Part shown: positions 3,557 through 19,022 of the stretch, piece after piece | How the letters are laid out: the number at the start of each line of letters is the position of its first letter | Position numbering within the stretch: position 1 is the first letter of the stretch | Virus record (IMG/VR): IMGVR_UViG_3300042465_001447 | Span: 1 to 27,136 of that record | Direction: 5' to 3' (one strand) | Source of the DNA: a virus | Taxonomy: Duplodnaviria; Caudoviricetes | DNA: 27,136 nucleotides | Notes under the pieces: generated by a model | What the model was told of the DNA's origin: nothing | Databases searched by the model: none | What the model saw: the letters and a program-made list of their open reading frames with translations, nothing else | Program-made: the position numbers and the translations under genes

Positions 3557-4510
3557 TTAGATAGAAAGTAATTCTAGTGCTCGTAGTTTGATGCCATCAT
3601 TGCGCCCTGCTAGGGTAGCAATACTAGCATCTTTCTGAGAGTAATGGTCAGCATATTCTACAACTGCTTGCCACAAACCAAACTCTGTGTCGCGAATGTT
3701 CTCTTGCGTTGGGCTATCTGAGTAGATAGCAAACGCTTTCTGCCGTGCGTTGAGAGCACGGGACTTAGCGTTCTTCTCACCCTTGGATAGTAGGTGCAGC
3801 GGTGCGTTCTCTATCTTGGTTGGCAATGCCCATACTTTTTTGAAGTAGGCTGTTGCTCTGTTGATGTCTGACTCACGTTGCATGAGATGGTTAGCCAGGT
3901 CGCTATACATATCAATGCTTGAGTAGGTTAGGTCAAGAAGGTTTCGCATATCAGATACTGATAGCACTGCGTTTTGTGTATGACGCAGCGTATAGGTATG
4001 TGCTTTATCCTTGGCTCTAAAGATACGATTGATTTGATTGGCACAAAACAATCGCTCAATGATAGGGCGTAGTACTACTGATGATGAACCATCATGACTG
4101 GTCTTGGCTAGCAAGAAGGCAGCATGTGGGTCGCCTTTGATTCCCATCTCTCTTGGTAATGACATGAGCATCCATACTTTTGCTCCGTCATCATACTCAC
4201 CTGCTGCTGCATAGCGAGCCTCGCCTGAATCAATTAATCCATCTAGTGAGCCAAAGACTTCAGAGTTCTGAAAGACTTTGTATTTGTTACCCACTACACC
4301 AATGACTGACTCTTTTCCATCGTGTGTTTTTACGACTGCTTGTTTCTTTGGTACATGCAAGAAGTCAGAGGTGTGCATCTCAGATAATCCAACAGTCCAG
4401 TTAAGTCCCGCTTGTTGTGCTACCTGTGCTGCGCTGGTTGCTTCTACCGCTACGCCTGCTTTAATCCAGGCTGAACGGTTTTTCTTTTCTACTACATCTG
4501 CTGTAGTCAT
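3557..4510 (-). CDS. DUF932 / TIGR03299 phage-plasmid protein
   Basis: AGLNWTV, GVVGNKYKVFQN, SHDGSSS, RLFCANQ, LRHT and GLWQAVVEYADH match the family pattern. Confidence 0.88.
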   Translation of the reverse strand: MTTADVVEKKNRSAWIKAGVAVEATSAAQVAQQAGLNWTVGLSEMHTSDFLHVPKKQAVVKTHDGKESVIGVVGNKYKVFQNSEVFGSLDGLIDSGEARYAAAGEYDDGAKVWMLMSLPREMGIKGDPHAAFLLAKTSHDGSSSVVLRPIIERLFCANQINRIFRAKDKAHTYTLRHTQNAVLSVSDMRNLLDLTYSSIDMYSDLANHLMQRESDINRATAYFKKVWALPTKIENAPLHLLSKGEKNAKSRALNARQKAFAIYSDSPTQENIRDTEFGLWQAVVEYADHYSQKDASIATLAGRNDGIKLRALELLSI

Positions 4511-4522
4511 ATGTCCCTTTCT

Positions 4523-5008
4523 TTACCATGAAGCCTGATACTCGAAGGCCCATCCTTCGGGTACATCTTCAATGAGTTTACTTACCATTCTCACAGTCTT
4601 TTCAAGACCATGAAAATACCATTCGTCATACTCTGTGCTTCCAAAGAAGAAGCCACCACCTGGTGGTAGTAGTTTACTTGCTTTAGTATGGTCTGCCAAT
4701 ACTTCTTCGCAAGCAATTTTTAGGTCAATTAAAGAACTGCGTGGTACATAGATTGGTTGGCACTCATCAACGCCGTCTGCTAATTCTTGAATGAACCAGT
4801 TGTGGATAGCATTAACCTTGCGCCAGTATCCAACTTGAATAGACACTGATGCAAAGGCTAAGTCTTCTGGGTTGTATACCCAATCTGTTGCCCCCACAAG
4901 GGAGGTTAAGATTGTGAAGTCAGCGTTCATTTTTTTATTGTGTGTTTCTGGTTCCCACTCAATAGATGAGATGCCCTTGCGGGCATAGAGATACATATCC
5001 AATCCCAT
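4523..5008 (-). CDS. conserved phage hypothetical protein (MGLDMY...YWRK family)
   Basis: MGLDMYL, VGYWRKVNAIHNWF, GFFFGSTEYDEWY and terminal YQASW are motifs recurrent in phage proteins. Confidence 0.85.
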   Translation of the reverse strand: MGLDMYLYARKGISSIEWEPETHNKKMNADFTILTSLVGATDWVYNPEDLAFASVSIQVGYWRKVNAIHNWFIQELADGVDECQPIYVPRSSLIDLKIACEEVLADHTKASKLLPPGGGFFFGSTEYDEWYFHGLEKTVRMVSKLIEDVPEGWAFEYQASW

Positions 5009-5010
5009 GA

Positions 5011-5508
5011 TTAGATACCCATTCCTTCTTTAACCTTTGGGTGTAGTTCGTATGTCATAGCAACGAACGCACCTGCAGGCCAGCCTGAAGTAAAGACTCT
5101 GTTAAGTAGGTTTGCTAGTGAATAACTAGGATTACTTTGTAGTGCCTGTGATAGCACATCTTTTGCTGATGTATCTTCAATTGAATACAAGTTAGCAGCC
5201 AATACACTAGCAACTGGTGCAATGAACTCACCTGGAACTACATCCATAAAGCATGCAAGGTATGTATTGACTACTGCAACTGGACGCTCAGATGGTAGAC
5301 CTAACATAAAGTCACGCAACTGAATGTCTCTATGCATACCTGCTGTTATTTCTGCAATGTGGTCAAAGTCTGGCGCTTCGCCTGAATCAATCTGTGTATA
5401 GATTGCATCTGTTAAACGCTTGCGCTGCTCTAACAATGGTGCTTCTTTACCATTCTCATCTGTAAGAATAGTAAGATAGTTTTGTATTTCTTCTATTGTT
5501 ACTGTCAT
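5011..5508 (-). CDS. DUF4192-like protein
   Basis: DIQLRD, APVASVLAA and ALQSNPSYSLANLLNRVFTSGWP resemble the C-terminal half of actinobacterial DUF4192. Start revised to 5508 (ATGA overlap, AAGGA RBS). Confidence 0.7.
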   Translation of the reverse strand: MTVTIEEIQNYLTILTDENGKEAPLLEQRKRLTDAIYTQIDSGEAPDFDHIAEITAGMHRDIQLRDFMLGLPSERPVAVVNTYLACFMDVVPGEFIAPVASVLAANLYSIEDTSAKDVLSQALQSNPSYSLANLLNRVFTSGWPAGAFVAMTYELHPKVKEGMGI

Positions 5509-5681
5509 TTGTTTTCCTTTTCTTTTGTATAGCGCTGGAAGGATTCCAACACATCTTGTTGTTGCTCTTGGGTAAGCATTGCCCATAGGTAGCCAAGTAA
5601 ATAAAAGGGACCGAACTCATCATCATAAAGTTTTCTGGCTAACTCTTTTACCTCTGTTAGTTCTGCTATTCCTACTGTCAT
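5505..5681 (-). CDS. hypothetical protein (58 aa)
   Basis: MTVGIAELTEVKELARKLYDDEFGPFYLLGYLWAML...; start revised to 5681 behind AAGGAG. Confidence 0.75.
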   Translation of the reverse strand: MTVGIAELTEVKELARKLYDDEFGPFYLLGYLWAMLTQEQQQDVLESFQRYTKEKENK

Positions 5682-6955: not shown

Positions 6956-7149
6956 ACATCCTCCTTTGCTACATCTGGGTCTATGTAGTAGTAGTTACTG
7001 CGCGCCTGCTTTTCCGTTCTTAAAGCACGGCGCAGATTTGTATTCTCTTTCATTAACAACATGTTCTGCCTAATGGCTAGTGTAATAACTGCAATACTTG
7101 TAGTCAAGGCTATCAAGATTGCTAACATTGTCATGGAATCTAATAACAT
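6934..7149 (-). CDS. membrane-anchored coiled-coil protein (71 aa)
   Basis: N-terminal hydrophobic helix then LMKENTNLRRAL heptads; GAAAGG RBS. Confidence 0.75.
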   Translation of the reverse strand: MLLDSMTMLAILIALTTSIAVITLAIRQNMLLMKENTNLRRALRTEKQARSNYYYIDPDVAKEDVWTVKSS

Positions 7150-7212
7150 TTTGTTACCTTTCTGGTTAGATAATGAACTCGCTACTGTCCGTTGATGTTA
7201 CTGGCCCTGCTT

Positions 7213-7253
7213 AAAAAAGGGAAGGCAGGTGAGAGCCTAAGCCCCCACCTGCC
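7213..7253 (-). terminator. intrinsic terminator
   Basis: Minus strand GGCAGGTGGGGGC-TTAG-GCTCTCACCTGCC (13 bp, two G-U) followed by TTCCCTTTTTT, just after the stop at 7261. Confidence 0.8.
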
Positions 7254-7260
7254 TTTGTCT

Positions 7261-7575
7261 TTATGCTTGTGTAACTGCAGTTAGTACTACCTGCTTGAGA
7301 CCTGGCTTGCGGTCTTTGTTGTCAATGTTTGGGCGACGGTCCCATCGAGTGTTACCGATTCCCTCTGCGTTGATGTACGCGGTTTGGTCATCGAGCCAGT
7401 TGAGTGCTCGAAGTTCTGAGATTACCTTCTCGTCGAAGATAACTACTCGAGTGGAGTCAGAGCAAATCATGCGCCCTGTTGGTAGTTGTTCGTAGTCGTT
7501 GATGGTTGCTGTGTAGAAACCATTGCGGTCAACAACATTCTTGATAACGCTGTTCTTGAATGTGACTGTGTTCAT
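7261..7575 (-). CDS. putative OB-fold single-stranded nucleic-acid binding protein
   Basis: Beta-rich 104 aa protein; 'INAEGIGNTRWD...DRKPGLKQVVLTAV' parallels the last SSB strands. The ORF is secure, the function tentative. Confidence 0.55.
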   Translation of the reverse strand: MNTVTFKNSVIKNVVDRNGFYTATINDYEQLPTGRMICSDSTRVVIFDEKVISELRALNWLDDQTAYINAEGIGNTRWDRRPNIDNKDRKPGLKQVVLTAVTQA

Positions 7576-7607
7576 TTTGTTTCCTTTTCTGTTGGTAGTG
7601 TTGTTGT

Positions 7608-7644
7608 GCAGACCTGCTCCTGCACTTGTTCAGAGCAGGTCTGC
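7608..7644. other. perfect 12-bp inverted repeat between two early genes
   Basis: GCAGACCTGCTC-N13-GAGCAGGTCTGC. Confidence 0.75.
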
Positions 7645-7652
7645 TTGGTTTG

Positions 7653-8024
7653 TTAGTTACAACTTGGACATACAGCGTGCTTGTTGCATACCATTCGACA
7701 GTCTTGACAGACCATCTCATGTGGACCTAAGTCCACGACCAGTTCAAAGAACCTATCGGATAGGTTGGTGATAGGTTCAACGAACTCCTCGCGCTCAGCC
7801 TTTGGGTCATACCATGTGCCCAAAGTGGTGGGCGCTATCCACTCATGACCACTTGGCTCAGTGATGCTGTGCCATTGGTTAGGGTAGATAAGGTTGCCTT
7901 CATCTACCATGTCATGGGCGAAGTCAGTCGCCCGTGAGTCGCGTAGGTCTTGGCAGTCCACGCATAGTTCCATCTGAATCATGCACTGGTAGCATGGGTT
8001 GGAGACAGTCAGTTCATCAGACAT
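7653..8024 (-). CDS. Cys-rich, probably zinc-binding early protein
   Basis: CYQC..CVDC at the N-terminus and CQDC..CNKH..CPSC at the C-terminus; GAAAGGA RBS; first gene of the left arm. Confidence 0.8.
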   Translation of the reverse strand: MSDELTVSNPCYQCMIQMELCVDCQDLRDSRATDFAHDMVDEGNLIYPNQWHSITEPSGHEWIAPTTLGTWYDPKAEREEFVEPITNLSDRFFELVVDLGPHEMVCQDCRMVCNKHAVCPSCN

Positions 8025-8043
8025 TGGTCTTTCCTTTCTTTTG

Positions 8044-8502
8044 GGTTGGTGCTAGCCACCAATCTTTCGGGCTATTCGTAAATCGCCTTGTCACTCTACA
8101 CCTGTCTGCCGAATAGGCAGACGCTCAAGGTGGACAATTGGCAGGCTTGCCAATTTGACAAGTGCGATTACGATATGCCCGCGCCGTAGGCGCAACGGCC
8201 CAGAAAGTTCCGCGATTAGGCAAGGGCGCAATTAAGCATGGCAAACAGTGCTAGCCCCTAAAGGCTAGCCTGTGCAGACAGGCTATTGCGTTGGACGAAC
8301 AGCATGCACAGCGTGGCTTTAGACACGCTAGCATCGGCTGGCGTACCGACTGGTGAGGGGTTGACCATTGCCAAGGCTATAGAATTTCATTTATTAGCCA
8401 GCACTCTACAGTTATATTATAAACAGAACTGGGGGCGAGACATGGTCGAGCGGATAGACTACAGTCCAGCATCGCTCTGTACAGTATAGACACCTGTTCT
8501 GT
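8044..8502 (+). ncRNA. putative large structured non-coding element (RNA or ssDNA)
   Basis: Nested helices forming a three-way junction (8068-8181), a four-way junction (8226-8291) and further domains; wobble pairs favour the plus strand; no credible ORF. Confidence 0.5.
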
Positions 8503-8539
8503 CAGTACTGGGGGCAGATATTTCTGACCCTAGACTGTT

Positions 8540-8720
8540 TAAATCTCTAGTAAATTATATATAGTATCTCTACAAAAGATTTTCCCGTACAATCCCCATG
8601 CCCTGTTTAGGCTGTTATTTAATAGTTTTAATTAAATAAAAAGATTTTTGCCTTTGCACCGTTCGGAATGGCTGTTTGAACGGGTTAATACTATATAGAG
8701 ACTATTTCTTTTACTACCTA
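8540..8720. promoter_or_regulatory. AT-rich control region upstream of terminase (promoter, origin or packaging site candidate)
   Basis: Visibly AT-rich, with inverted repeats TTATTTAAT/ATTAAATAA (8615-8639) and TATATAGTAT/ATACTATATA (8558-8567, 8688-8697). Confidence 0.4.
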
Positions 8721-8806
8721 AGCAAGTTCTTCAGGAACTTGCGTTACAGACTGTATCTACTATCCGTTACTAACTGGTCTGTACTATATGCAGATGGGAC
8801 AGTTAC

Positions 8807-10693
8807 GTGACTTTTCAGAAGACTAATAACCCTCGTACCGCTATGGCGGCAGAGGCTAAAGCCAAAGTTTTGGCGCTGGTTTCTGAAGGTATGTCTGTGC
8901 ATAGGGCTATGGAACAAAATGGCAAAAAGCCAGACACTGTTCGCATTTGGTGTTTAAGAGACCCTGCCTTTGCTACCGCCCTTGCCGAGGCAAAGGAAAA
9001 CGCTAAAGAGCGTTCATTAAAAGCCATGGGCGTAGCCCGTGAAGATATTACCTTTCCTCAGTTCTCTGAGATGTTTTTGGACCAGCGGGTCTTTCCACAT
9101 CATATGGATTGGATTGACCTATTAGAGGGACGCGAGCCTTCGTGGCTGCATCCCAATATGATTTATGAACCAGGTAATCGGAACCGCCTTCTTTTAAACG
9201 TTCCCCCCGAGCACGCCAAATCAACCGTCATTACGGTTAACTACGCAACTTATCGCATCGCTCTCAATCCGAACGTCCGCATTATTGTGGTGTCAAAGAC
9301 CCTTATCAAAGCACGCGAGTTCGTGTACGCAATCAAGCAGAGATTATCTCACCCGCGCTGGCTCAAGTTACAAACAACCTTTGGGCCTGAAGGGGGATGG
9401 AAAGAAGACTCAGATACTTGGCGAGTTGATACGGTCTACCTTGGGAGTGATGCGAGAAACTCAAGTGAAAAAGACCCAACAATCCAGGCACTGGGTATGG
9501 GTGGGCAGATTTATGGTGCCCGCGCTGACCTGATTATCCTAGATGACTGCATAACTACCTCTAACGCTCACGAGCATGAGAAGCAGATTAACTGGTTGCA
9601 GAAGGAAGTTATTACCCGTCTGGGCAAAAATGGTAAGTTACTGGTGGTAGGTACCCGTATTGCGCCATCTGATTTTTATAAAGAACTCCGCGACCCTAAA
9701 CATTGGTCTGGTGGCAAGTCACCTTTCACATACATGGGTATGCCAGCCGTTCTTGAGTATGGGGATAAGCCAGCAGAGTGGGAAACCCTTTGGCCTGCAA
9801 GTGATATACCTTGGGATGGGGATGAAGATACGCCACCTGATGAGAATGGGTTATACCCTAAGTGGGATGGCGAAACGCTTTTCAAGCGTAGAAGCGAAGT
9901 AACACCAGCAACATGGGCGCTTGTTTACCAACAAGAAGATGTAGTTGAAGATTCAATCTTTCCACCTGAACTGGTGCAAGGTTCCATCAATGGTATGCGT
10001 AAGCGTGGACCGTTAAGACCAGGGGTTACAGGACATCCACCTCAAGTTGAGGGTTACACTATTGTGGGCTTTGACCCCGCTATGGCGGGTAACGCTGCAT
10101 TTGTGGCTATTACCTATAACAGAACAGATGGAAAGATTTATGTTCTGGATTGTTTAAACATGACAGAACCAACACCGCAAAAGATTAGGCAGGCCATTGA
10201 AGATTTTACGCTTCGGTATAAACCGCAAGAGTTCCGAGTTGAAATCAATGCCCACCAAAAAGCCTACTCCCTTGACGAAGAACTACGAACATGGCTCTCT
10301 TCACACGGCGTACGGCTTAATTCTCACTTTACAGGCAAGAACAAATGGGACACAAACTTCGGTGTGGCATCTATGTCAACACTCTTTGGCACTAGCCGTG
10401 AAGGCAAGTTCCAAAAGAACAACATTGTAGAATTACCTAGTACTGAAAACTCAGAAGGTTTAAAGGCGTTAGTCCAACAGTTAATTACTTGGAAGCCTGA
10501 TACCAGAGGTAAGACAGATACTGTTATGGCTTTATGGTTTGCGGTTATCCGCGCCCGTGAGTTTATGCAGCAAAATAGCAACATTGCTAGGTACGCAAAT
10601 AATCGTTGGGCTACTAGAGCACAGCAACATAAGCGTACATCAATTAACCTAGATGAAGCCGCATCCGAAATGTGGCAACAACAATACGGATAG
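8807..10693 (+). CDS. terL: terminase large subunit with N-terminal TerS-like HTH
   Basis: Walker A variant PPEHAKST, GARADLIILDD Walker B, VVGTR coupling motif, LVYQQE, nuclease GFDPA, VEINAHQ and DTVMALWFA. Confidence 0.95.
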   Translation: MTFQKTNNPRTAMAAEAKAKVLALVSEGMSVHRAMEQNGKKPDTVRIWCLRDPAFATALAEAKENAKERSLKAMGVAREDITFPQFSEMFLDQRVFPHHMDWIDLLEGREPSWLHPNMIYEPGNRNRLLLNVPPEHAKSTVITVNYATYRIALNPNVRIIVVSKTLIKAREFVYAIKQRLSHPRWLKLQTTFGPEGGWKEDSDTWRVDTVYLGSDARNSSEKDPTIQALGMGGQIYGARADLIILDDCITTSNAHEHEKQINWLQKEVITRLGKNGKLLVVGTRIAPSDFYKELRDPKHWSGGKSPFTYMGMPAVLEYGDKPAEWETLWPASDIPWDGDEDTPPDENGLYPKWDGETLFKRRSEVTPATWALVYQQEDVVEDSIFPPELVQGSINGMRKRGPLRPGVTGHPPQVEGYTIVGFDPAMAGNAAFVAITYNRTDGKIYVLDCLNMTEPTPQKIRQAIEDFTLRYKPQEFRVEINAHQKAYSLDEELRTWLSSHGVRLNSHFTGKNKWDTNFGVASMSTLFGTSREGKFQKNNIVELPSTENSEGLKALVQQLITWKPDTRGKTDTVMALWFAVIRAREFMQQNSNIARYANNRWATRAQQHKRTSINLDEAASEMWQQQYG

Positions 10694-13294: not shown

Positions 13295-13719
13295 CAACTG
13301 CACCTATGGATAACCGTGGTGGGTATCGCCCAACAGCCCCTCAAAATAATCCAGCAAATGTTTCAGCAACTGGTGGCAATGGACAATCAGGCCGTGCTAC
13401 ACAACCTGCAAAGTATATTGCTGGCATGCCATACGGCGAAGGACAAGCAACCATGGAACAACAAATGGGTGCACCTATGCAGGGTACTGAGCAAGTTGGA
13501 ACTAGTCGTTTAGATATTACTCCATTAACTGCTGAAACAAAGTTTAAAGATGAACCAATTACTGCTGGTGCAGATTTTGGTCCTGGTCCTGATTCTAGCA
13601 TTTTAAATCTTCCTAGCACTGAGCAAACAATTCTTTCTGTTATTAGAAAGATTGCACAGCAAGACCCAACTGGTGACAGTGAATTAATTTATCGTATGCT
13701 AGAAGATAGTGGTGCTTAA
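13291..13719 (+). CDS. Gly/Pro-rich hypothetical virion-associated protein
   Basis: GTGA and TAATG overlaps; low-complexity N-terminus and helical C-terminus. Confidence 0.75.
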   Translation: MTTAPMDNRGGYRPTAPQNNPANVSATGGNGQSGRATQPAKYIAGMPYGEGQATMEQQMGAPMQGTEQVGTSRLDITPLTAETKFKDEPITAGADFGPGPDSSILNLPSTEQTILSVIRKIAQQDPTGDSELIYRMLEDSGA

Positions 13720-16700
13720 TGCCAGAGGTGCCACTAGACCCATCTGTAGCACAGTTAAGTCCTAACTTTTATTCTGCTGCTATTAAATCAACCCTTGATG
13801 CTAAATCAAGAGTAATGATTGAACAGTTATCTCAAAGCCACAAAAAGGGTAAAGACTTACTTAAACTAAGTGATAAAAAAGCACGTGAAGAGTTTTTAAA
13901 ACTTGACCCAATTGTGCAAAACAACATCCGTTATATTTATTCTGACAAAGAACAATTCTTACCAGAACAAAATTTAGTAGGTAAAGTTGTTCAAGGCATT
14001 GGTAAAGCAGCAATGGGAACTGCTACAGGAATCTTTAGTCCATTTATTGCAGCATTTAAAGTTGCAGAAGAATATGGACAGGTTTTAAATACAGCAAACA
14101 TTGCTCGTGCTCAAATGGAACAAGGTAAACCATTTACAAAGAAACTTCTTTCAGATTCTTATAATGGATTAAACTCTTGGCGATGGGATAAAGTTGCTAA
14201 ATTTGAAAAGCAATATGGAAAAGCATTAATTGCTTTAGCAAGAGGCAATGCAGAAGGCCGCACAATTAGTGAGTCAATTGATGAATATGGCACAGTTGAT
14301 GCTGACATGTATGCTGCTATTCAATTTATGGGCGACGAGCCTACTAAGTTTCAAAACCTTTTAGATACTCTTAAGTTAGAGACTCAGGTTTCACCAGGCC
14401 GTGACTTTGCAAATAAAATGCCAACAAACAACACTACTGTTAATAAAAATCACTGGGCTGTTAAGTTTACTAAAATGTTGGGTATTGATGTATCAACTAA
14501 AGAGGGCGTAACAAAAGCCAAAAAACTTGTTTCAGGACCAGTTGATGCTATTTACCAGGTTGCTATTGACCCATTAACTTATGTTGGTGTAGGTCCTGCA
14601 GTTAAAGCATTTACTAAAGGTGTAGACGGTATTCAAGTTGGTGCAAAAGAGGCCTTGCAATTTGTTGGTTTAAAATCTCGTGGACAAAGAATGGCAGACC
14701 AGTATCAGTTTATTTCTGAAAAGGCTGGCACTGCTTCTGCTGGAATGGACTGGGCGTTTCGCCAACCAGAAGTTGTTAACCTTTGGGATAACGAACTAGG
14801 TCCTTTGTTTAAAAAGTATACAGAGTCTTCAAGCCCAACTGTTAAATCACAGGTATGGAATGAAATTAAACAAGGCTATCCACAGTATCGCAATAGAGAG
14901 TTAGTAAAATTAGTTTCAACAGAGATGAAAAAAACTAATGATTACAATGCTGCTGGTGCAAAACGATTCTTTACACAAGTAGATGACTTTGACACAATGC
15001 TTAGTGGTCCAGTCGATGGTGTTTCATTTCGCCGTGATGGTATTCCTGTTGCTCGTTTTTATAGAAACATGACATCTGCAGTTCATAGAACTGCTTATGA
15101 TTTGTTTAATCCTACTGTTGGCGCAAAAGCAACTGATGATGCAATCCGTCAAAACGACGAAGGTCTAAAGTCTATTATGGATACATTAAAAACAGTATCT
15201 AATGACTCAGAAGTTTTACTTAATCCAAACATTGAAGATATTTTTGCACTACAAAGCAATGTAAAAAGCGCACGTAAAATTGCCTATCAAATTGGAACTG
15301 GTTTAAGCCGTTCGCCTGGTCGTATTCTTTGGGGCGATGATTCCATTAAGACGGTTGAAAGCGTAAGAAACCTAGCCAACCAGGTAATGGATACAAAGTT
15401 TGCAGATGCCTTTGCTGAGGCTTATCCAAACGAACCAGCAGAAGTTCAGATTACAATGATTCGTAATCTTTACAATGCATTTATGATTAAAATTGGAATG
15501 TACGGTAGCCCTGGCGGTAAGGCTCAAGCAGAAGAAATTCTTGCTAAAACCTTTAACGAAACAGGTATGCTTTCTACAACAAGAAGCGAAGTGCCTCTTG
15601 AGTGGGTAGATGAGATTAGCCCTAATTTAATTCGTTATGAAAACGATATTCCATTTCAGGCTTCAAAGGGAATTATTGAACCATCTCAGATGACAGATGG
15701 TATATCACCACTTCCTTACGATTTGTTGTATCAGTATGCTGCTACATCTAAACTAAGTGAAAAGACTAACTTTACAAATCTACTTGGTGGGGCAACAAGA
15801 AATAATTTTGTTCGCAAATACACAGACTTTTGGGCAGACCTTACACTTTACCCACGTCTAGGTATACGTTCTGCTATTGACGAAACATTTTTCTTTTTTA
15901 TGTATGCTCCTTACTACGATGTCAAAGCATTTCTTAAGGGTGAGGCAATATTCCCAACAAGAGCCTTAACCTCTATTACTGGTTCCAAGGCATCTCAAGG
16001 TCAGTATGCTCGTGGCGTTTATAAGGTCATGAAAAATCTTGACCCAACCAAAAAGTTTAGCCCAGAGGTTCGTTATAACGCTATTAAAAAGTTAGCGGAA
16101 ATGGAATCTGTTAAGCGTGGATACAATGTTCCACAAGCAGAAATCTCAATGGCATTGATTCGTGAAGACATGGTTTATCGTGCTCAAGATTTGTACAAAA
16201 ATACTGTTTCAGAATCAACTTGGAAAAACATTGAAAAGTTAATGCGTAATAATCCAGTTGTATTTGAGTCAATGATTAACTCAATGGGTGCACGTTCTTC
16301 TATATCTGGAAAGATAGATGTAGATTTTATAGATTCAATGTTTACTCCTAGCAATTTGAGTAAGATGATGACAGATGCTGGACTTGTAAAGAGTGGTAAG
16401 TATACTCCTCGACAGGTTTCAGAAATGTCAGAGTCAGCCATTGCTGTAACTCATTTTGATAACTGGTCTATTCGTTTTCCTTACAACAGTGAGCCTATTG
16501 CACCTGGAATAAAGTTATCTCCAGCCCCAGTTTTTTACAAGCATAACGCATTAAAGACAAAAGATGATTTTATTGCAGCCCGTAATGAGTTAATGGAATC
16601 TATGGGTGTTGGATACAATGATGAAATTGAAGGCTTCGCTGTAACTAACCCAGAACTAGCCAAAAGATTCTTATCAAAGTTTTCATCAACAGTTTACTAC

Positions 16701-19022
16701 CGTCAAAAAGGTGTACCAGATGAGGCAATTGCACGTATCCATGTAGAGAACATGCTTCTTGACATGAGAAATACATTTCATGGTGGGCCAAACACTTACA
16801 ATGAAGAACTATTTGATTTAGTTAAAAGCAAGTATGCAGAAATTGAAATTTTCCGCATGAAGTCTAAGCAAAGCATGGACAATGCTTGGGAAAATGCATC
16901 TGCTGCTCTTACCTTTGATGAGTTCCAGAAGGCAACAGTAGGTCGCCACCCAGTAAGTGGGGAAATTAATACACGACTTGTTAGCCATGGAGACAATAAA
17001 GACATGGCTGTCTTTGAAGAAGAAGGCGGATTGCCTAAGATTCTTGAAAAGTTCCAGAACTGGTCTATGGAAGTAATGGATGCAACCGTTACTGGCATGT
17101 ATCGCCAGAAGGCTTTGTGGATTTACTTTGACCAAAGAATGGATAGTCTTGTTCCTTACGAAAACATGCTACGCAATCGCATGGAAAAGGAATTAATTGA
17201 GCAAGGCATGTCACCAGCACTGGCTAAAACAAGAGCGGCAGCCCATGCTGAGAAACAAACTGTTGAAATTGCCTTTAAAGACTCAAGCGAAAAACTTTTA
17301 GAGTATGTAGATAACCCAGAAGTTAAGTCTAACTTTGCAGTATCGGTCCGTTCTGTTGGTAGATTCTACCGTGCAACAGAAGACTTCCATCGCCGTATGT
17401 ATCGCTTGTTTACAAAGGCACCATTACGTACTCTATATCGTTTGCGTTTACTAAACACTGGTTTAGATGCAGCAGGAGATGTTTACGAAGATGATAAGGG
17501 AGACAAGTATGTTGTATTCCCTACAGATACTATTATTAACTCTGCAATTGAACCAGTTATTCGTACCTTAACTGGCAACAAGACATTTAACATACCAACA
17601 TTTAATGACATCACATTAAAGTTGCGTTTGATTAACCCATCTTTTGCACCTGATGCTGGTCAACCAGCGTTTGCTGGTCCTATTGGAGCAGTAAGCATTC
17701 TTTCTCTTCGTGCATTACTACGTAATATAGTTCCATTTGCCGAAAGAATTATACCTGGCAATCAAGAGGGTATGGTTGCAGAATTACAACCTAGATTTGA
17801 AAAAGCCGCTGACGTAGTTGGTCAGATTGGATTAGGCAACTTTGCTGATTCAATGACATTTAGAAAAGCAATAACACCTATGCTTGTTGATACAAGTATG
17901 GGTGCATTATCAACGCTTACTCCATATGAGTGGGATAGACAGACTACAACTGCAACTCTTCAGGCAATGGCTTATTTCCAGGCTAATGGAATGGGTATTT
18001 CAGAGGATGCCACAGCCGAAGAAAAGAAAAAGTATATTGATAATCTAAAGATTTCTGTTAGCAATATTATGATTGGTCGCACTATCTTGGGTTATATATC
18101 TCCAGGTATGCCAACATTTAAGGAAAGTAAAGACCTACCTGCATACATGCGTAAGGTTGGCATTACATCCTTTAAGGCAGAGTTCTGGGATATTTACAAT
18201 GGTATTCTTCGTAATGCTGGTGATGATGTTAGCGATGTATTTGACCTAGCAGTTGCTACATTTGTAGGCAAAAATCCAGGCAAGGTAATCTGGACAGTGC
18301 CACGCACCGATAAGGAATACAAAGTATTTATTGCACAGACAACTGAGGTTAAAGACTGGGCTATTAAAAACAAGTCCTTTGTAGATACCTATAAAGAAGT
18401 TGCTTATTTGTTTGCGCCACGTGCTGGTGATTATAACTCAGATGTTTATAACTGGCTACAAGCAGAAGGTTTAATTAAGTTACCAGAGTTTGAGGATTAC
18501 TTACTACGCCTTCAAATTGCAGAAGATAAAGAAAAATACTTTGAAATCGGCAATCAATTAGAAAAAAGACTTGAAGTGGTTGGCATAACACAAGAACGCA
18601 AAGAGTTAATTAACATTGCTGCTCAATCTAAAAAGGATTTAATTACTTCTAATCCTTACCTAGAGGCTGCTATTAATGGTTCTATTAATGAGCGTGGCGA
18701 ACTAGGTAAGAAGTTTAAGACCCTTAATGAGGCAATCAATAGTAATAAAACTCCTGTTGATGCGCAGACTCGTAAGGCCATGAAACTAATTCTTGAAGAA
18801 GTAGCATCCTTTGTTGTCATGGCTGAGGATGAATCTATGGGTAGACGCTATGACTTTACTCAAATTAAAGAACAAAGAAAACTAGAGATAGTAGAAATTA
18901 TTGACAAGTTAGTTAAGTCTAGCCCAGCAATTTCTGAAGCAAATAGGTTGATATTTAAACCATTACTTAATTCATATTCAAGAGATGTTAATACGGCAGG
19001 TCCTACGGAGGTAAATAGATAA
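13719..19022 (+). CDS. very large putative internal virion (ejection) protein
   Basis: 1767 aa, apparently mostly helical, in the virion operon of a podovirus-like phage; no catalytic motif recognised. Confidence 0.65.
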   Translation: MPEVPLDPSVAQLSPNFYSAAIKSTLDAKSRVMIEQLSQSHKKGKDLLKLSDKKAREEFLKLDPIVQNNIRYIYSDKEQFLPEQNLVGKVVQGIGKAAMGTATGIFSPFIAAFKVAEEYGQVLNTANIARAQMEQGKPFTKKLLSDSYNGLNSWRWDKVAKFEKQYGKALIALARGNAEGRTISESIDEYGTVDADMYAAIQFMGDEPTKFQNLLDTLKLETQVSPGRDFANKMPTNNTTVNKNHWAVKFTKMLGIDVSTKEGVTKAKKLVSGPVDAIYQVAIDPLTYVGVGPAVKAFTKGVDGIQVGAKEALQFVGLKSRGQRMADQYQFISEKAGTASAGMDWAFRQPEVVNLWDNELGPLFKKYTESSSPTVKSQVWNEIKQGYPQYRNRELVKLVSTEMKKTNDYNAAGAKRFFTQVDDFDTMLSGPVDGVSFRRDGIPVARFYRNMTSAVHRTAYDLFNPTVGAKATDDAIRQNDEGLKSIMDTLKTVSNDSEVLLNPNIEDIFALQSNVKSARKIAYQIGTGLSRSPGRILWGDDSIKTVESVRNLANQVMDTKFADAFAEAYPNEPAEVQITMIRNLYNAFMIKIGMYGSPGGKAQAEEILAKTFNETGMLSTTRSEVPLEWVDEISPNLIRYENDIPFQASKGIIEPSQMTDGISPLPYDLLYQYAATSKLSEKTNFTNLLGGATRNNFVRKYTDFWADLTLYPRLGIRSAIDETFFFFMYAPYYDVKAFLKGEAIFPTRALTSITGSKASQGQYARGVYKVMKNLDPTKKFSPEVRYNAIKKLAEMESVKRGYNVPQAEISMALIREDMVYRAQDLYKNTVSESTWKNIEKLMRNNPVVFESMINSMGARSSISGKIDVDFIDSMFTPSNLSKMMTDAGLVKSGKYTPRQVSEMSESAIAVTHFDNWSIRFPYNSEPIAPGIKLSPAPVFYKHNALKTKDDFIAARNELMESMGVGYNDEIEGFAVTNPELAKRFLSKFSSTVYYRQKGVPDEAIARIHVENMLLDMRNTFHGGPNTYNEELFDLVKSKYAEIEIFRMKSKQSMDNAWENASAALTFDEFQKATVGRHPVSGEINTRLVSHGDNKDMAVFEEEGGLPKILEKFQNWSMEVMDATVTGMYRQKALWIYFDQRMDSLVPYENMLRNRMEKELIEQGMSPALAKTRAAAHAEKQTVEIAFKDSSEKLLEYVDNPEVKSNFAVSVRSVGRFYRATEDFHRRMYRLFTKAPLRTLYRLRLLNTGLDAAGDVYEDDKGDKYVVFPTDTIINSAIEPVIRTLTGNKTFNIPTFNDITLKLRLINPSFAPDAGQPAFAGPIGAVSILSLRALLRNIVPFAERIIPGNQEGMVAELQPRFEKAADVVGQIGLGNFADSMTFRKAITPMLVDTSMGALSTLTPYEWDRQTTTATLQAMAYFQANGMGISEDATAEEKKKYIDNLKISVSNIMIGRTILGYISPGMPTFKESKDLPAYMRKVGITSFKAEFWDIYNGILRNAGDDVSDVFDLAVATFVGKNPGKVIWTVPRTDKEYKVFIAQTTEVKDWAIKNKSFVDTYKEVAYLFAPRAGDYNSDVYNWLQAEGLIKLPEFEDYLLRLQIAEDKEKYFEIGNQLEKRLEVVGITQERKELINIAAQSKKDLITSNPYLEAAINGSINERGELGKKFKTLNEAINSNKTPVDAQTRKAMKLILEEVASFVVMAEDESMGRRYDFTQIKEQRKLEIVEIIDKLVKSSPAISEANRLIFKPLLNSYSRDVNTAGPTEVNR

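Follow-up and report, generated by a model that had tools for sequence, protein, structure and literature searches.

A hypervariable fold-back ahead of the first early genes of a freshwater tailed phage is a candidate single-stranded-DNA promoter

Which strand, and which nucleic acid, forms the extensive fold located between the early and the structural genes of a tailed phage, and what is it for? The window, a partial phage genome of 27,136 nt, is of a freshwater, actinophage-like tailed virus (terminase, portal and capsid genes), with the terminase, portal and capsid genes running rightward from ~8807-8843 and the replication and small early genes running leftward from 8024. As the terminase is 63% identical to that of the cultured Planktophila phages E7/F5 (PMC10202952) and ~47% identical to that of Streptomyces Beephvirinae, the host appears from these sequence relationships to be actinobacterial. 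A near-identical complete genome, G001, encodes WhiB. BLASTN of 7200-8900 against annotated phages gave no match. DUF932 and DUF4192 genes are situated within the early operon (3557-5586), and a 1767-aa orphan, possibly an ejection protein, is encoded among the structural genes (13719-19022) with at least 161 relatives and no family.

An earlier note on this DNA had proposed a set of pairings for the intergenic fold, which were all recovered in place, including a 22-bp helix of 5+5+5+7 pairs between 8068-8093 and 8156-8181. The plus strand is organized as follows:

8068..8093, plus strand: 5' arm of the closing helix P1, the template strand for leftward early transcription, with the predicted +1 template base at 8068
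8099..8132, plus strand: inner arm P2, with the conserved GAATA-loop hairpin at 8104-8122 and a 5-nt bulge
8136..8155, plus strand: inner arm P3, directly abutting P1
8175..8181, plus strand: end of the 3' arm, with 8181 opposite 8068

The three-way junction of the plus strand has a minimum free energy of -67.0 kcal/mol (z -6.28; equally stable shuffles 0/200), that of the minus strand of the window allele is nearly as low (-66.2 kcal/mol, z -5.79), and when DNA parameters are used none of the 475 windows of 114 nt tiled across the genome reaches the stability of 8068-8181. Rfam covariance models gave 0 matches at the gathering threshold (best E 0.36).

The element resides in a region exchanged between close relatives:

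8042..8360, plus strand: hypervariable, strongly structured spacer holding the element, swapped between relatives whose terminases are 96-98% identical

In these relatives both flanks align with 81-95% identity, while ~8042-8360 is left unaligned by BLAST; the alleles differ from relative to relative, and every allele folded is highly structured. A search with a 17-nt pattern of the GAATA hairpin retrieved 66 viral loci, 53 with a match to terL or early genes. By the detector used, no such element was found in E7, F5 and the Streptomyces phage Percastrophe, with E7 possessing an ordinary leftward TTGACT-17 arrangement. The view that selection acts on the fold rather than on a simple operator palindrome is supported by 12 distinct three-way-junction homologues, in which 99.3% of cells are paired and 15 two-sided changes occur compared to 4.8 in shuffles (0/500), the number of pairs with two-sided changes being 4, not above shuffles (75/500).

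The conserved sequence features, absent from the earlier note, are promoter-like boxes on the 3' arm:

8155..8160, plus strand: TTGACA (-35-like), 3' arm, paired with 8089-8093; TTGAC invariant in 12/12 three-way-junction alleles
8169..8174, plus strand: TACGAT (-10-like), 3' arm, 8 nt past TTGACA; T, A and last T invariant in 12/12 alleles

Downstream of the GAATA hairpin, the pattern TTG[AC][CT]n-N6-8-TAnnnT is found in 41/45 distinct family contexts selected by the hairpin only, as compared to 0/9 unrelated contexts, 15/722 background windows and 3/120 random TTGAC matches; a looser pattern search, with ~12,000 matches unspecific, served as a control only. After removal of 6 of the 41 contexts, which had no confident partner, the other 35 reduced to 15 distinct spacer pairs, in which the Watson-Crick pairing of the box region with its own arm is 100% at -15, -13 and -12 (-14 being the anchor), falls to 60% at -11 and is 13-33% at -10 to -7. 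At -15 to -13 pairing with the arms of other alleles amounts to 26-35%, so that the spacer beside the -10 box finds its complement in the arm of its own allele and not in those of other alleles, again unlike a simple operator. Housekeeping sigma factors in the open complex bind duplex DNA ending at -12 together with the unpaired non-template box, and the pairing profile, as read from sequence, is the outline of a pre-opened bubble. In 3/15 spacer pairs, the window included, a one-base bulge offsets the register, with most of the box remaining paired, and in the window allele five of the six box bases are predicted to be paired.

Classification of 102 loci in 38 lineages, by patterns written after the data had been seen, assigned 22 lineages to a short-spacer class, 5 to a long-spacer class and 3 to an extended-box-only class; 6 lack the last T (only TTGA/TTTA-N-TA) and 2 show no match, while the opposite strand gave 0 for the short-spacer, long-spacer and extended-box-only patterns. 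The spacer between TTGAC and the box is 8 nt in the window allele, 6-8 nt in 22/38 lineages and 15-16 nt in 5, and TGn extended boxes occur in some relatives, one being TG-C-TATAAT. A spacer of 6-8 nt is about one helical turn too short and incompatible with normal binding of sigma region 4. Sigma70_r4_2 had no match in 5 near-complete relatives.

Could the early genes be transcribed from an ordinary promoter instead? The last T of the box is missing from the partner arm in 13/15 spacer pairs, which means that the ordinary duplex has no matching leftward -10 at this site. Within 8030-8470 we saw no strong leftward promoter of the ordinary type: minus-strand TAnnnT hexamers are accompanied there by at most 4/6 matches at -35, compared to 5/6 at the 7107 promoter. 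In the window allele TAGAGT at 8098 of the minus strand could be an ordinary -10; its first T is missing in 8/12 alleles.

With respect to the strand, 26 of 34 lineages were compared after exclusion of 4 near-duplicates, 3 without a located partner and 1 paired elsewhere; the lineages share ancestry, hence their counts are not independent. The body of the fold-back is more stable on the plus strand in 26/26 lineages with RNA and 25/26 with DNA parameters, with 55 versus 19 G.T pairs, a bias which counts against an RNA leader formed by the early (minus) strand. The earlier note had suggested that 8064-8072 can pair alternatively with a downstream segment, the two partners forming a switch near the first early start codon:

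8198..8207, plus strand: alternative partner of 8064-8072, allele-specific and not conserved

The alternative pairing does exist in the window allele, and in the 144-nt fragment its probability is 0.42 with RNA and 0.58 with DNA parameters. In longer contexts it falls to at most 0.01 (RNA) or 0.21-0.26 (DNA) with the core helices never disturbed, and the partner is found in only 2/15 distinct alleles, so the two-state switch is not supported as a property of the element; a conserved, mutually exclusive pairing acting on expression signals, as in riboswitches, was not found. It is thus highly unlikely that a structured 5' leader of the early mRNA toggles between two pairings and controls the first gene: while the minus strand of the window allele folds well and a long leader could begin from TATAAT at 8421 on that strand, the ribosome-binding site is untouched by either state, the strand bias points the other way and the promoter-like boxes would stay unexplained.

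A plus-strand transcript is the other RNA to be considered. According to this explanation the boxes constitute an ordinary rightward duplex promoter, possibly dependent on a factor such as WhiA/WhiB, and the structure belongs to a plus-strand non-coding RNA. The +1 position on the 3' arm is a purine in 33/34 lineages, the sequence right of 8181 is structured and plus-biased, WhiB is encoded by G001, and WhiA reads GACAC, which overlaps TTGACA; however, the same source, PMC10243135, places the WhiA motif upstream of the -35, and GACAC is absent from most alleles. Furthermore, RNA starting at 8181 would leave out the covarying helix, and RNA-type tetraloops are nearly absent, as among 162 hairpins just 1 GNRA and 1 UNCG loop occur on either strand, with 6 GNA triloops on the plus and 0 on the minus strand, a loop composition that by sequence is not RNA-like. 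We consider this explanation unlikely. Because a rightward start at 8181 would be located past the covarying helix, and because this helix is less favourable on the strand of the early mRNA, the simplest place for it to form is the template strand of the DNA.

The element can then be read, with a probability of about 0.6, as an Frpo-like fold-back, that is, a single-stranded-DNA promoter for the first early genes. The plus strand, template of the leftward early genes, would fold back when single-stranded, with the 3' arm acting as the non-template strand that supplies the TTGACA and TACGAT boxes. The fold would thereby build a promoter of the host type whose start bubble is already open, and from it the host RNA polymerase would initiate near 8068 and transcribe leftward across the first gene and the predicted SSB gene. 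Pairing, covariation, strand bias, boxes and the loss of pairing from -11 on in relatives are observed; recognition by the host sigma-A holoenzyme, the start site and the single-stranded state are inferred. Against this reading stand the short spacer of most lineages, the lineages with an incomplete box pattern or none, the largely paired box and plus-biased leader hairpin of the window allele, its candidate ordinary -10 at 8098, and the negative search in E7, F5 and Percastrophe.

The Frpo/ssi single-stranded-DNA promoters of the leading regions of conjugative plasmids were reportedly described by Masai and Arai in 1997. According to PMC9849209, PMC11541004 and PMC7690428, plasmid Frpo rebuilds the -10 and -35 boxes on single-stranded DNA ahead of ssb and is switched off by second-strand synthesis. 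As in F Frpo1/Frpo2, a stable predicted stem-loop is located on the strand that templates the downstream genes and harbours -35-like and -10-like boxes, and an SSB gene stands behind the promoter in the plasmid (Frpo2; PMC9849209) as it does, by prediction, in the phage unit. On the other hand, the phage element deviates from the canonical box spacing in most lineages (6-8 nt) and is a branched junction, hypervariable and sometimes extended to ~300 bp over the gene; while Frpo belongs to a conjugative leading region transferred as single-stranded DNA, the host here is a tailed dsDNA phage with no known single-stranded stage. By analogy the element probably works like Frpo, yet departs from this group in two defining features, the host element and the spacing. 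A literature search at the level of open-access titles and listings found no precedent for a fold-back promoter in a tailed phage.

How the template might become single-stranded is a matter of conjecture. Entry, 5' resection or replication could each give rise to it close to the early end of the linear genome; the plus strand would have its 3' terminus there and could be exposed by resection enzymes of the AdnAB type, which reportedly produce 3' tails (PMC5314763). That the element may lie near the early end is suggested by six relative contigs that begin 407-427 nt upstream of terL and by a 264-bp terminal repeat upstream of terL in the Streptomyces relative Percastrophe. Possession of a terminase and a portal indicates packaging of dsDNA, which speaks against a single-stranded template.

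Host RNA polymerase also initiates on a folded single strand at the minus-strand origin of filamentous phages and at plasmid ssoA, ssDNA replicons making short primers. The phage element shares the folded single strand and, as proposed, the start by host RNA polymerase, but is followed by a leader, a ribosome-binding site and genes rather than yielding a short primer; initiation on the M13 origin is mentioned in PMC7948647. Along these lines, the fold-back could mainly be a priming site, where an RNA polymerase primer on the single-stranded plus strand near the genome end starts complementary-strand synthesis with the early mRNA as a by-product. Frpo primes DNA synthesis in vitro too (PMC7690428), and the contig starts and terminal repeat described above hint at a nearby terminus. 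As the predicted transcript has a 5' hairpin, a ribosome-binding site and a start codon at mRNA-like spacing, we regard a mainly priming role as quite unlikely.

For the single-stranded-DNA promoter the predicted transcript was derived in the same 26 lineages by reading the 5' arm as template. A pyrimidine-purine start is present in 25/26 lineages, a feature sought over four positions and weak alone, and the start codon follows 32-53 nt downstream of the predicted start in 25/26. The hairpin begins at nt 1-2 of the transcript in 20/26 lineages, and this 5' hairpin is more stable on the mRNA strand in 20/26, with the reverse in 5, among them the window, whose hairpin begins at nt 7 and is favoured on the plus strand (-10.6 versus -7.2). 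In the window the predicted start at 8068 is 44 nt ahead of the ATG:

8025..8068, minus strand: predicted 44-nt mRNA leader, with a hairpin at 8044-8064 and a ribosome-binding site at ~8030-8037

The conserved GAATA hairpin brings phage N4 to mind, a dsDNA phage with a template-strand non-B structure for its earliest genes, involvement of SSB and a G...A loop, all features with a likeness here; N4, however, relies on a virion RNA polymerase and on short hairpins with their centre at -11 (PMC4496689), while the present element consists of long fold-backs with host-type boxes, and motif and profile searches of the 1767-aa protein detected no polymerase. A template-strand hairpin promoter of the N4 type, in which the GAATA hairpin would be the recognition loop of a virion RNA polymerase, could invoke the conserved G...A loop on the template strand and the 1767-aa orphan among the structural genes. 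That protein, however, lacks the polymerase motifs searched for and has no Pfam, PHROG or PDB match, many lineages lack the GAATA hairpin, and the hairpin-to-start distance varies widely, the GAATA loop being 43-47 nt from 8068 in the window and much further in nested alleles, in place of the fixed distance of N4. With the conserved boxes of the host-sigma type in addition, this explanation is very improbable.

The genes that the single-stranded-DNA promoter would drive are arranged as follows:

7653..8024, minus strand: first early gene, 123 aa, Cys-rich, no family match
7261..7575, minus strand: second early gene, 104 aa, with a predicted OB fold of the SSB type; RNA contigs cover the gene in 4/4 runs
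7222..7255, minus strand: terminator-like hairpin at the close of what is predicted to be the first transcription unit, with an RNA contig end at 7256

The product of the second gene is predicted as an OB fold with a pLDDT of 92, and all PDB matches listed are SSBs; Pfam and PDB sequence searches missed this relationship, which the fold search alone found. Just past the terminator a canonical TTGACT-17-TACACT promoter (7079-7107, minus strand) starts the second early unit, and between the terminator at 7255-7222 and this promoter at 7107, on one side, and the fold-back, on the other, the first two genes look like a separate unit. RNA contigs from four of six RNA runs, which show neither strand nor start, cover the SSB gene in all and the terL 5' region in three, with one contig spanning 7256-7610. 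None covers 7800-8700, a gap that is not evidence as the contigs represent one allele among many. Ahead of the SSB gene a perfect 12-bp hairpin at 7608-7644, possibly a processing or stabilising stem, coincides with an RNA contig end at 7610.

In part of the relatives the fold reaches into the coding sequence, growing to ~280-350 bp across an SSB-like gene:

Upstream of terL in L037, L038, L048, L070, L040, L041, L049, L055, L066 and L077: giant fold-backs

At these 10 loci the fold comprises 222-357 pairs and spans the first gene, which is a divergent member of the same SSB-like alignment. The giant folds are broken into helices of at most 13 bp, and in one group ~150 bulged bases are on the gene side versus ~20 on the mirror side, with bulges of 4-7 nt recurring almost only on the gene side. 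Of 16 loci retrieved with the SSB-like protein, one is too short and several were already represented among the earlier contigs; the better fold is on the template strand in 15/16, and a mirror-arm box was located in 11, one being TG-C-TATAAT.

A wider proposal, which we put forward tentatively as possible rather than probable, is that these abundant freshwater tailed phages go through a stage, so far unrecognised, in which the early end of the genome is single-stranded, and that this stage serves as a timer: a branched fold-back with compressed -35/-10 geometry, silent in duplex DNA, would drive SSB and the first genes for as long as the second strand has not been restored, as in plasmid leading regions. 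Should transcription from single-stranded DNA prove true, a family of dsDNA phages would have its first genes expressed in this way by the host enzyme, and a step of genome entry or end processing that has not been described would be implied. The element is small (114 nt), and its natural alleles offer ready-made compensatory variants and two box geometries.

Several further features are located to the right of the element. A GTGGC-N-GACAC hairpin (8314-8330 and relatives) recurs in many otherwise unrelated alleles, and within ~8420-8550 a GACCCYAGA-like motif is conserved at ~8525, possibly marking a genome terminus or terminal repeat. A terL-proximal TTGAAC-N7-TACTAT has similar spacing to the boxes of the element, but its long-range pairing is not kept in relatives and it was taken as a separate late promoter. 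Upstream of terL at 8661-8694 (plus strand), the relatives viewed, Planktophila phage F5 among them, retain the motif GTTCG-N-TTGAACGG(A/G)TTA, which is by its sequence a candidate late promoter or activator site.
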